A DNA stretch of 45,020 nucleotides, from the IMG/VR virus record IMGVR_UViG_3300005939_000012; one strand, 5' to 3'. Under the pieces are notes generated by a model. The model was not told the origin of the DNA. It saw only the letters and a program-made list of their open reading frames with translations, and ran no database searches. How positions within the stretch are numbered: the stretch's first letter is position 1; the number at the start of each line of letters is the position of its first letter. The DNA comes from a virus. Of this stretch, positions 37,616 through 39,574 are shown piece after piece. The position numbers were made by a program, and so were the translations under genes.

Positions 37616-39574
37616 ATGAAAAATTTATTTATTGTAATCCTATTATTTATAGGAAGTGTAGTTTTCGCACAAACATTTTATGAAAAAGGGAACATCACAG
37701 AGGACACAATTAATGTGAATGAAGTCACTGTAACTGGTTCCTACACCGCTGTAAAAGAAACACCATTTTCCTTTACAAATCTAAATCATGAAGTAATTCA
37801 AGCCAGGCAACCATTTTCTGAGCCAGCAATACTTCTTAGTCAAACACCATCAATTGTTACTCATTCCGATAATGGATTAGGAAATGGCTATATTTATTAT
37901 AGAATGAGAGGGATTGATCAGACACGAATTAATTCTACATTTAATGGTGTTCCAATGAATGAACCAGAAGATCAAGGAATTTATTATAACAATTATCCGA
38001 ATTTCCTTAGCGCGGTCAATAACATTCAAATTATTAGAGGAGCTGGAATGACAAAATCTGGTGTATCTTCTTATGGTGGAAGTATGAACTTCAATTCATT
38101 AAAATTTCCAGATAAACCTGGATTGTTTGCCCAAGGAAGTGTTGGTTCATATGGATCGCTAGGTTCATCAGGTGGTATAATGTACCCTAATTTTTTTATA
38201 ACCACTTCATCTAATCATACCAATGGATATAAAAATAATGTGTTTAATAATTCATACTCAACATTTTATGGTGCCAAATTAAAGAGTTTTAAATTCTATG
38301 GTTTTGTTGGAAAACAAAGAAATGGAATGGGTTGGTTAGGAGAACCACTAGATTCAATTAATTCTAATCCGAGATATAATTCTAATAAGCCGAATGAAAC
38401 TGATGATTTCTCACAAATTCATAGCCAATTACATTGGGAACGATTTGGATTGCACGCTACAGTTTATCATACCGGAATTCATGGATGGTATGATACAGAT
38501 ATAGCTCATTTTGATCCTTCTTTAAATTGGGGGGATCTAATGAATAGAATTGAACTTTGGTCTAATCAATTCGGAACAAATTTAAATTACAATCTAAAAG
38601 TTGGAAATTGGTTGAATACAAATTATGGAGTTAGTGCATATACTTATTATAGAGAGCATGTTGGTTCATATAATGGAGAAGAAGCATATAAAAATACTGG
38701 ATATAGAAATGAAGTAGCACCTTATGTTAAAGGTGAAATTACATCTGGAAGGTTTTCAATTTATGGGGATGTACAGTACCGTTACAGTATGTTCTCTTAT
38801 GATGGTCAGACACCTTTCCCTACACAGAAATATAGTTTTATTAATTGGTCAGGTGGTGTCACTATAAGGACCGGAGCGTATTCTAATATTTACTATGGAA
38901 TTGGAATGAGTCACAGAGAACCTACTAGAACAGACCTATTTATGGGGAACGATGATTTTATTCCAGAAATGTATAATCCAACTGTTCCGGAACAAGCTCT
39001 AGATAATGAATTAGGATTTAGGTACAATGATCAATCTCTTAAAGTAAATGTGAATACGTATTATATGAGTTTTAAGAATGAAATTGTATTGAATGGACAA
39101 TATGGCCCTAATGGAATTTTACTTCACCAAAACGTAGATCAATCATTTAGGAGTGGAATAGAACTTGATGGAAGATATAAATGGCAAAATGGTTTCGAGT
39201 ATGTATTAGCTGCTAATGTTTCATATAATCAAATTAAAGAAGATGGAGAAATATTTTCACCTGTTATGACTCCAAATGTTATTGTTAGTACTGACATAAA
39301 ATATAATTTAAGCGATTGGTTTAATATAGGTTTGAATGTTAAATATAGAGGAGATAGTTATATTGACTTCTCAAATGAACATACTCTTCCTGCTGCAACT
39401 ACACTAAATACCTATGCTGGATTCAAATGGAAAAAATTTGAATTAATAGGAAGCTTAAATAATTTAACCAACGAGTTAATTCTTGGAAATGCTGTGATGG
39501 GATATGATGGGGAACCTCTTTATTTTGTAATGGCTGGGACCAATGGGTTTTTAACTCTTAAATATTCGTTTTAA
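37616..39574 (+). CDS. TonB-dependent receptor-like outer-membrane protein
   Basis: Signal peptide ending in AQ, a TonB-box-like DTINVNEVTVTG and a plug-domain-like region. The protein is long, beta-rich and Tyr/Gly/Asn-rich, and ends in a C-terminal F. Confidence 0.6.
   Translation: MKNLFIVILLFIGSVVFAQTFYEKGNITEDTINVNEVTVTGSYTAVKETPFSFTNLNHEVIQARQPFSEPAILLSQTPSIVTHSDNGLGNGYIYYRMRGIDQTRINSTFNGVPMNEPEDQGIYYNNYPNFLSAVNNIQIIRGAGMTKSGVSSYGGSMNFNSLKFPDKPGLFAQGSVGSYGSLGSSGGIMYPNFFITTSSNHTNGYKNNVFNNSYSTFYGAKLKSFKFYGFVGKQRNGMGWLGEPLDSINSNPRYNSNKPNETDDFSQIHSQLHWERFGLHATVYHTGIHGWYDTDIAHFDPSLNWGDLMNRIELWSNQFGTNLNYNLKVGNWLNTNYGVSAYTYYREHVGSYNGEEAYKNTGYRNEVAPYVKGEITSGRFSIYGDVQYRYSMFSYDGQTPFPTQKYSFINWSGGVTIRTGAYSNIYYGIGMSHREPTRTDLFMGNDDFIPEMYNPTVPEQALDNELGFRYNDQSLKVNVNTYYMSFKNEIVLNGQYGPNGILLHQNVDQSFRSGIELDGRYKWQNGFEYVLAANVSYNQIKEDGEIFSPVMTPNVIVSTDIKYNLSDWFNIGLNVKYRGDSYIDFSNEHTLPAATTLNTYAGFKWKKFELIGSLNNLTNELILGNAVMGYDGEPLYFVMAGTNGFLTLKYSF

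Follow-up and report, generated by a model that had tools for sequence, protein, structure and literature searches.

A phage-borne TonB-dependent transporter gene within a viral NAD module: a candidate outer-membrane entry step for NAD-precursor salvage

A TonB-dependent transporter gene on a viral DNA window

The IMG/VR virus record IMGVR_UViG_3300005939_000012 is a stretch of 45,020 nucleotides (nt), which we refer to in its entirety as 'the window'. On its plus strand, at 37616..39574, it carries an open reading frame (ORF) for a protein of 652 amino acids (aa), a TonB-dependent receptor-like outer-membrane protein, hereafter the TBDR. The original prediction, made by a model from the sequence of the window, had described this ORF as having a Bacteroidota-style signal peptide ending in AQ, a TonB-box-like segment, a plug-like region and a β-barrel body ending in F. 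The ORF is present as claimed and all of these elements can be located in it, as follows (coordinates in the window, strand, feature and basis):

37616..39574, +, gene of a TonB-dependent outer-membrane transporter, 652 aa plus stop, ATG start (Pfam, AlphaFold, Foldseek and the ratio of non-synonymous to synonymous substitution rates, dN/dS)
37616..37669, +, Sec signal peptide, aa 1–18 (MKNLFIVILLFIGSVVFA), recognised by eye from the sequence, predicted mature N-terminus Q19
37703..37738, +, TonB-box-like segment, aa 30–41, D30–G41 (DTINVNEVTVTG) (motif conservation, disordered linker)
37751..38080, +, Plug domain, aa 46–155 (Pfam PF07715, 42.7 bits against a cutoff of 23.9)
38120..39571, +, β-barrel of about 22 strands, aa 169–652 (DSSP of the structural model, Pfam PF00593, superposition)

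Signal peptide cleavage is predicted between VFA and Q19. The latter residue is found in at least 90% of 79 aligned family members, and a glutamine directly following the cleavage site fits the 'Q-rule' of Bacteroidota signal-peptidase-I substrates. The TonB-box-like region follows the pattern DT-h-x-h-x-E-[VI]-x-[VI], which the family alignment shows to be kept in bacterial and phage members alike. In the plug, the subfamily-invariant residues RGIDQTRIN and NEPEDQG are both retained, the second being an acidic motif (aa 115–121) that does not vary in the 79-sequence alignment. As with the Plug domain, the Pfam match to the barrel is above its gathering cutoff (TonB_dep_Rec_b-barrel, PF00593, residues 205–617, 74.9 bits against 27). 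The protein ends in ...LKYSF, with a terminal phenylalanine, the family consensus being YxF, and all of the 55 columns that are invariant across the 79 family members are present in the window TBDR. Plug, barrel, TonB box, signal peptide and C-terminal aromatic residue together establish that the TBDR belongs to the TonB-dependent transporter superfamily; uptake dependent on TonB-ExbBD is predicted. In PHROGs, the TBDR is matched by the family phrog_5687 (function not known).

The modelled structure is a plugged 22-strand barrel

An AlphaFold2 model computed on the family alignment has a mean predicted local distance difference test score (pLDDT) of 88 and a predicted template modelling score (pTM) of 0.84. 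It contains about 22 long strands between residues 169 and 651 with pLDDT above 90 (the strand number was read off the DSSP string, not off the coordinates), and the plug is modelled as a compact domain. Residues 16–41, with pLDDT below 50, form the sole disordered stretch of the model; this N-terminal linker carries the conserved TonB-box segment.

Since a sequence search of the PDB gave nothing better than a marginal match to FyuA (E = 1e-4), structure comparison was needed. In a Foldseek search against the PDB the top matches were all 22-strand TonB-dependent transporters, led by PqqU (9c4o, query TM-score, TMq, 0.81) and YncD (6v81, 0.78) and followed by FyuA, FhuA and FecA; superposition on PqqU and YncD yielded TMq values of 0.78–0.81 over approximately 670 aligned columns. 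These two Escherichia coli transporters are of comparable size (~650–660 residues) and likewise consist of a 22-strand barrel and a plug, and PqqU takes a cofactor-sized cargo; they differ from the window TBDR in cargo and genomic context, and sequence identity is 16–17%. An AlphaFold model had been proposed earlier as the check for a 22-strand barrel, and a structure with no plug or barrel as what would speak against the assignment: the model has both, superposes on 22-strand transporters, and the reading as a TonB-dependent transporter stands.

Most bacterial and viral relatives are linked to NadR, many of them also to PnuC

A large-database search with the TBDR returned 1242 homologues. The metagenomic ones form a graded series with 44–71% identity to the window protein, and the named TBDRs encoded on Bacteroidota chromosomes (Chitinophagaceae, Flammeovirga, Hymenobacter) lie at 37–41%; chromosomal members as a whole are 35–41% identical over 94–100% of the length. 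To describe their surroundings we took the top 80 genome loci, nearly all labelled Bacteroidota, and scored them by tblastn. A NadR-like gene lies directly downstream of the TBDR gene on the same strand in 72 of the 80, with PnuC between the two in 53 (that is, 19 of the 72 TBDR-NadR loci are without an adjacent PnuC); NrtR is found upstream in 15/80 and NAMPT nearby in 12/80. The gene order is NrtR-TBDR-PnuC-NadR in Flammeovirga aprica and NrtR-Nudix-NAMPT-NADAR-TBDR-NadR-KptA in Paraflavitalea soli. The NadR partners have NadR models as their best matches, and the PnuC partners score 85–123 bits against an NCBIfam PnuC equivalog cutoff of 42.45.

The same linkage is seen in viruses. By tblastn, TBDR homologues are found in three complete 'uncultured phage' genomes (635–735 kb) and in all Lak Prevotella megaphages. 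The three genomes, LR756501 (735 kb), LR745206 and LR756502, have TBDR-PnuC-NadR in the bacterial order; in Lak-C1 and Lak-B8, NadR and PnuC lie 5–7 kb downstream of the TBDR gene; and among 42 IMG/VR loci with a TBDR, NadR is linked in 37 and PnuC in 29. The phage copies share with the chromosomal operons of Bacteroidota, such as those of Flammeovirga aprica and Paraflavitalea soli, the TBDR subfamily with its invariant motifs, Q and TonB-box region, as well as the order TBDR-then-NadR, but they form clades of their own, have no NrtR and are surrounded by phage genes. Separately, in LR756502 (positions 19573–19980 of our locus L007) the TBDR-PnuC-NadR cassette is immediately preceded by a Nudix/NrtR-like ORF, 28% identical to NrtR of Flammeovirga (E = 2e-7); this phage may have captured an NrtR-like regulator as well.

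Because its bacterial relatives mostly adjoin PnuC and NadR genes, we read the TBDR as most probably the outer-membrane entry step of a phage pathway that restores nicotinamide adenine dinucleotide (NAD), not as a sugar or iron receptor. The proposal that the TBDR might serve precursor uptake for the adjacent NAD module therefore gains support from the counts at chromosomal loci and from the complete cassettes of huge phages. The open-access literature that we searched contained no paper describing a TBDR linked to PnuC, NadR, NrtR or uptake of nicotinamide riboside (NR), and a paper on the NrtR regulon includes no outer-membrane component; since we came across no paper on the chromosomal operon or its substrate, this comparator is itself not experimentally defined.

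The NAD module of the window

In the window, the TBDR gene lies inside a 15-kb NAD module, the following genes of which are all on the plus strand. The module had been named in the original prediction, and Pfam and NCBIfam recover NadE, PncA, PncB, a NadD-type nicotinamide mononucleotide adenylyltransferase (NMNAT), a Macro protein and a NadR-like enzyme:

27715..28602, +, NAD synthase (NadE) (Pfam NAD_synthase, 114.6 bits)
29654..30376, +, isochorismatase-family protein, candidate nicotinamidase (PncA) (Pfam Isochorismatase, 77.8 bits)
32499–33440, +, radical-SAM protein, specificity not assigned (conserved within viral NAD modules)
34021..35220, +, nicotinate phosphoribosyltransferase (PncB) (Pfam NAPRTase, 196.8 bits, and NAPRTase_N, 120.9 bits)
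35220–35654, +, PTH2-type (archaeal/eukaryotic-type) peptidyl-tRNA hydrolase (85.7 bits)
36443..37342, +, NadD-type nicotinate/nicotinamide mononucleotide adenylyltransferase with a fused MazG-like domain (Pfam, NCBIfam)
39574..39774, +, ORF of 66 aa with its start overlapping the TBDR stop (conserved, no Pfam match)
39771..40250, +, protein with a Macro domain, a type that binds ADP-ribose or hydrolyses it (Pfam Macro, 23 bits, cutoff 22)
40721..41515, +, NUMOD3 homing-endonuclease-like ORF between the Macro and NadR genes (Pfam NUMOD3, weak)
41481..42515, +, NadR-like bifunctional enzyme without a helix-turn-helix (HTH) domain (Pfam AAA_28, 75.6 bits, and a cytidylyltransferase-like N-terminus)

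The NadR-like gene is co-directional with the TBDR gene and begins 1.9 kb downstream of it, the Macro gene, small ORFs and a homing-endonuclease insertion lying between. Its product is 37% identical to Flammeovirga NadR and aligns to positions 66–359 of the 411 of the NadR model, i.e. without the HTH part; PFHKGH is present in the NMN (nicotinamide mononucleotide) adenylyltransferase part, and the Walker A motif GTESTGKT in the ribosylnicotinamide kinase (RNK) part. The MazG-NadD fusion matches CTP_transf_like with 65.7 bits and MazG with 23.4 bits, and scores 110 bits with TIGR00482, the cutoff of which is 112.45. The candidate PncA is kept in the module of relatives L003, L091, L093 and L099.

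The Macro gene adjoins the TBDR gene in L003, L092, L095 and L096 too. Its product is weakly similar to the macro domain of the DarG antitoxin (30 bits, far under the cutoff of 250); it could remove ADP-ribose marks (an anti-DarT activity) or process the ADP-ribose produced by NADase defences. The 66-aa ORF has a 53% identical counterpart after the TBDR gene in L003 and L004. The copies of this small ORF are 66–69 aa long: that of L003 (12170–12361) lies ~200 bp downstream of the TBDR gene, and in L095 (11941–12150) the start overlaps the TBDR stop as it does in the window, similarity in this case being judged by eye. The radical-SAM protein is 53–69% identical in six related viral contigs and always encoded between PncA and PncB, and in six related viral contigs the PTH2-type hydrolase gene is found just upstream of the TBDR gene. 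The NUMOD3 ORF has a 50% identical paralogue at 8811–9566, and the same position in L003 is without it.

Sugar, thiamine and iron as alternative cargoes

The claim that a TBDR is an unusual gene for a phage holds as to rarity, but such a gene is not unprecedented: in 2021 the TBDRs of megaphages Mar_Mega_1 and LR745206 were labelled SusC, with carbohydrate uptake being proposed (PMC9723777), the only earlier report of a megaphage TBDR found in the open-access literature that we searched. The window protein could, by the same token, be a SusC-like glycan importer that raises carbohydrate uptake in infection, and BFVD, in which the Mar_Mega_1 protein is the one other viral protein with the TBDR fold, lists that protein as 'TonB-dependent receptor SusC'. 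The domain make-up and the neighbourhood argue otherwise. At 652 aa the window TBDR has neither CarboxypepD_reg nor an N-terminal extension, Pfam giving Plug and barrel only, whereas SusC-type transporters are ~1000 aa long. The NCBIfam SusC/RagA model does not match it at E 0.01 or better, and no SusD-like protein was found among the 26 neighbouring window ORFs scanned with Pfam, nor any SusD family member in the precomputed Pfam labels of L003, of the bacterial loci and of L132, a contig that reaches 10 kb downstream of the TBDR gene, ~4.6 kb past the window end. As for the two megaphage proteins, the LR745206 copy (L006) belongs to the family of the window TBDR (36% identity) and its gene is directly followed by PnuC and NadR, and the Mar_Mega_1 protein, 805 aa long, is 12% identical to the window TBDR. 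We rejected assignment to the SusC-type subgroup on length, domains, model match and neighbours, and consider glycan import extremely unlikely.

Thiamine uptake in Bacteroides follows the same logic as the one considered here: a TonB-dependent outer-membrane step (the TBDR OMthi), a Pnu-family inner-membrane facilitator (PnuT) and a cytoplasmic trapping kinase (thiamine pyrophosphokinase), under a thiamine pyrophosphate (TPP) riboswitch. The TBDR might accordingly import another small nutrient – thiamine through an OMthi-PnuT-type system, an iron-siderophore complex or a different cofactor – its NAD neighbourhood being in part coincidental. PnuC-family proteins in Bacteroides are indeed thought to be thiamine porters (PMC6281302), several homologues of the TBDR are labelled 'iron complex outermembrane receptor protein' by JGI, PqqU, the top match by structure, takes up a different cofactor, and the nearest NCBIfam match is a haem/transferrin receptor model (66.7 bits against a cutoff of 323.75). 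The TBDR loci differ from the thiamine system, however, in having a downstream kinase of the NadR type instead of a thiamine pyrophosphokinase, and NAD-related regulators and neighbours, with NrtR, NAMPT, NADAR and Nudix genes recurring upstream; an Rfam search of the window and of eight bacterial loci gave no riboswitch, whether for TPP or of another kind. Among the Pfam-labelled neighbours in bacteria and phages there are no iron or siderophore genes (Fur boxes were outside the search). Assignment to a thiamine-type subgroup was rejected on the riboswitch result and the NadR-type partner enzyme, and assignment to an iron-type subgroup on the NAD-metabolism neighbours and the lack of iron/siderophore genes among the Pfam labels; we regard a cargo of this kind as unlikely.

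Selection, origin of the cassette and the decoy explanation

Purifying selection acts on the phage copies of the TBDR, with a dN/dS of 0.128 at a dS of 0.06 for the contigs L091 and L099, 0.11–0.12 for phage TBDR pairs at 75% identity and 0.25 for the window and L003. With values of 0.11–0.25 and all 55 family-invariant positions kept, we rejected the idea that the TBDR is a decaying or hitch-hiking gene.

A rough, midpoint-rooted neighbour-joining tree places the viral TBDRs in three clades: one Lak-like, one LR745206/LR756502-like and one comprising the window, its IMG/VR relatives and LR756501. The last of these nests among chromosomal Bacteroidota sequences, and the order of the phage cassette is that of the bacterial operon. 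The simplest reading of these sequence relationships is that large phages acquired the cassette from Bacteroidota hosts, on one or perhaps several occasions, and have since kept it for a long time.

Conservation of this kind also bears on a role in which transport is irrelevant. Porins encoded by phages, for example Lc of phage PA-2, serve in exclusion, and TonB-dependent transporters are classic phage receptors; among the Foldseek matches are FhuA bound to pb5 of phage T5 and FhuA bound to the exclusion lipoprotein Llp. The original prediction had suggested that the TBDR could be a superinfection-exclusion decoy for a receptor. On this view the phage-made TBDR would replace, mask or titrate the host receptor to which this phage or its competitors bind. 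A decoy would not need a TonB box, a plug and invariant plug and barrel residues, all of which are kept under purifying selection, and it leaves unexplained why NadR, and usually PnuC, is linked to the TBDR gene in three divergent viral clades and in 72/80 bacterial loci. The suggestion gained no support, nothing that we found arguing specifically for it, and the conserved linkage can be accounted for without it; we consider it quite improbable.

A predicted entry step for NAD precursors

We therefore favour, with a probability of about 0.72, the reading that the TBDR is a functional transporter of a Bacteroidota-specific subfamily that provides the outer-membrane entry of NAD-precursor salvage. 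Judging from the sequences of its neighbours, the most likely cargo would be a pyridine nucleoside or nucleotide, namely NR, or possibly NMN or NAD+ trimmed in the periplasm. Fold, motifs, purifying selection and genomic linkage are established here, and from them we infer substrate, localisation, TonB coupling and physiological role.

In the proposed mechanism, the TBDR would be exported via Sec when a large phage infects a Bacteroidota host, cut by signal peptidase I before Q19 and inserted into the outer membrane by the host β-barrel assembly machinery (BAM). Host TonB-ExbBD would energise it through the N-terminal DT..EVTV TonB box, and high-affinity capture would concentrate a scarce external NAD precursor in the periplasm. 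PnuC, of which many related megaphages have their own, would carry the precursor across the inner membrane, and the phage NadR-like enzyme (41481–42515) would trap it as NMN and then adenylate this to NAD+; both steps have been demonstrated for the homologous PnuC and NadR of the coliphage pathway NARP3 (PMC13464706). PncA, PncB, NadD and NadE would add a Preiss-Handler route from nicotinamide, recycling the nicotinamide freed by NADase defences, and the Macro domain may process ADP-ribose products. As a whole, the module would keep NAD+ up for replication of a large genome and refill NAD+ destroyed by host defences.

Several points weigh against this reading. The putative substrate of the subfamily is assigned from gene neighbourhood, and the open-access literature that we searched contains no characterised member of the Bacteroidota TBDR-PnuC-NadR subfamily. 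NR, at ~255 Da, passes the outer membrane via porins in many bacteria, and for this reason the need for an active NR transporter is itself conjectural. The cycle of a lytic phage may be too short for a new outer-membrane protein to be assembled and to pay off. The NadR-like ORF scores 170 bits with TIGR01526 and 139 bits with PRK08099 NadR, both under the equivalog cutoffs; the neighbour-joining tree is too simple to resolve the number and direction of transfers; and the origin of the window is deduced in a stretch of 45 kb in which no capsid, terminase, portal or tail genes were found. Finally, no PnuC was detected in the window, in L132 or in L003, either by tblastn with Flammeovirga PnuC or with an 83-sequence profile applied to six-frame ORFs, nor by tblastn in the close relative L004, so that in this lineage the inner-membrane step is unaccounted for.

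The same profile, as a positive control, gave 180 bits for the PnuC encoded directly upstream of the TBDR gene in the sister contig L095. A small hydrophobic ORF at 40247–40408 was considered as a PnuC remnant and rejected, having no match to the profile. As none was found in the window, PnuC would be either that of the host or encoded elsewhere in the phage genome: the phage may carry it in another part of a presumably very large genome, or it may use host PnuC.

Relation to known phage NAD+ pathways

Depleting NAD+ is one of the main defences against phages, and the phage pathways that rebuild it, NARP1 to NARP3, are a topic of current research; to our knowledge, those described so far are all confined to the cytoplasm or the inner membrane. 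NARP3 consists of PnuC and NadR, as in Escherichia phage TrudiRoth (Bas30_86/87), and was shown experimentally in coliphages to import NR, rebuild NAD+ and defeat Sir2-HerA; the paper mentions neither TonB nor the outer membrane (Sci Adv 2026, PMC13464706). A survey from 2024 found pnuC and nadR to be common in gut jumbo phages, again with no mention of a TonB component (PMC11662467).

The module of the window resembles NARP3 in that the phage encodes a NadR-like enzyme, made up of NMNAT and RNK parts without an HTH, that is linked to the uptake of an external NAD precursor. A PnuC gene, the other component of NARP3, occurs in L095, LR756501, LR745206, LR756502 and the Lak phages, whereas none was detected in the window. 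Further differences from NARP3 are that the cassette includes an outer-membrane TonB-dependent transporter, that the hosts are Bacteroidota instead of Enterobacteriaceae, and that in the window the module is merged with the Preiss-Handler genes PncA, PncB, NadD and NadE. The TBDR would thus serve as the outer-membrane tier of an NR salvage route that resembles NARP3 without being the canonical two-gene system, and by analogy the module would have a putative role in restoring NAD+ against NAD-depleting defence. For Bacteroidota megaphages more generally we lean, with less conviction than for the transporter itself, towards a three-tier import line of TBDR, PnuC and NadR, an extended 'NARP3' that breaches both membranes. 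With its predicted substrate, the TBDR module would represent a previously undescribed form, with three tiers, of an established pathway of metabolism and counter-defence.

If this is true, large phages invest in the outer-membrane step of precursor acquisition too, their infection cycles are long enough for the assembly of a new outer-membrane protein, and a phage is able to reshape the outer membrane of its host so as to scavenge nutrients and counter defences. Among TonB-dependent transporters encoded by phages, the TBDR would be the first to which a substrate can be assigned, and the sole published annotation of such genes, as SusC for carbohydrate uptake, would be corrected. The subfamily would be the missing Bacteroidota outer-membrane transporter for vitamin-B3 nucleosides and represent a new class of TonB cargo. 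The same evidence nominates a TBDR subfamily widespread in Bacteroidota as the outer-membrane route for NR or related B3 vitamers. Such a candidate vitamin-B3 transporter family bears on vitamin cross-feeding within gut communities and environmental ones, and cultivable Flammeovirga, Chitinophaga, Hymenobacter or Prevotella would allow a direct test.

Phage origin and other features of the window

That the window is phage DNA is well supported; with no structural genes in it, the evidence is indirect. A cluster of ~20 tRNA genes on the plus strand (7543–23703) contains duplicates (Gln ×3, Glu ×3, Leu ×5, Phe ×2, Tyr ×2) and ends with an amber-suppressor-type tRNA (23630–23703, anticodon CTA; CUA). 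There are at least eight homing-endonuclease-like ORFs (GIY-YIG, NUMOD3, HNH), several of them inside the NAD module and the tRNA array:

1441–2103, 8811–9566, 10157–10936, 11505–12308, 21936–22577, 28998–29675 (minus strand), 30407–31105 and 40721–41515, homing-endonuclease-like ORFs

ORFs of at least 90 aa are nearly all on the plus strand, and many of them are without a family match. The genes for dCMP deaminase, NadE, PncA, the radical-SAM protein, PncB, PTH2, TBDR and NadR are collinear in IMG/VR viral contigs, and an identical TBDR protein is found on six contigs from several metagenomes.

The window might instead be a segment of a bacterial chromosome or plasmid, or a chimeric assembly, in which case the TBDR would be an ordinary host gene. 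This would be in keeping with the lack of a virion gene in 45 kb and with the result of a megablast search, in which 20 kb of the window had no near-identical record in the phage collection. It sits poorly with the clustered tRNAs and their suppressor, the homing endonucleases, the near-uniform gene orientation, the gene order common to several viral contigs, the identical protein on six contigs and the presence of curated complete phage genomes of 540–735 kb in the TBDR clade. We hold this explanation to be very unlikely.

Lak-type phages recode TAG. We considered recoding in the window in view of its suppressor-type tRNA and rejected it: TAG read-through barely alters ORF lengths, the TBDR ORF has no in-frame stop, and the standard-code calls stand; any recoding would thus concern other, perhaps late, genes. 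A scan for sigma-70 promoters and terminators found no excess over shuffled sequences; as it was not designed for Bacteroidota promoters, it is uninformative on transcription units.

Some further observations concern genes and RNAs away from the TBDR. The homing-endonuclease-like ORF at 28998–29675 is the sole clearly annotated minus-strand gene in the window. L003, the relative with 67% identity, encodes a homologue of ribosomal protein S21 (21652–21846, precomputed Pfam PF01165) and a T4 endonuclease V-like pyrimidine-dimer excision enzyme (96–569), both of which are typical of large phages. Amid the tRNA array of the window, an ORF-poor, GC-richer stretch at 13.7–17.4 kb contains a full-length GOLLD RNA (15937–16422, plus strand, Rfam RF02032, 154.7 bits, gathering score 150), inside which a tRNA lies at 16011–16080. 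An 805-aa ORF (17804–20221, plus strand) has the domains of eukaryotic major vault protein (MVP_shoulder, 95.2 bits, Vault_3, 46.1 bits, and a weak SPFH match), which are unusual for a phage, and a flotillin/SPFH protein of 516 aa is encoded at 3051–4601 (plus strand, Band_7, 106 bits). Together, the flotillin/SPFH and vault-like ORFs suggest phage-encoded membrane or scaffold functions.

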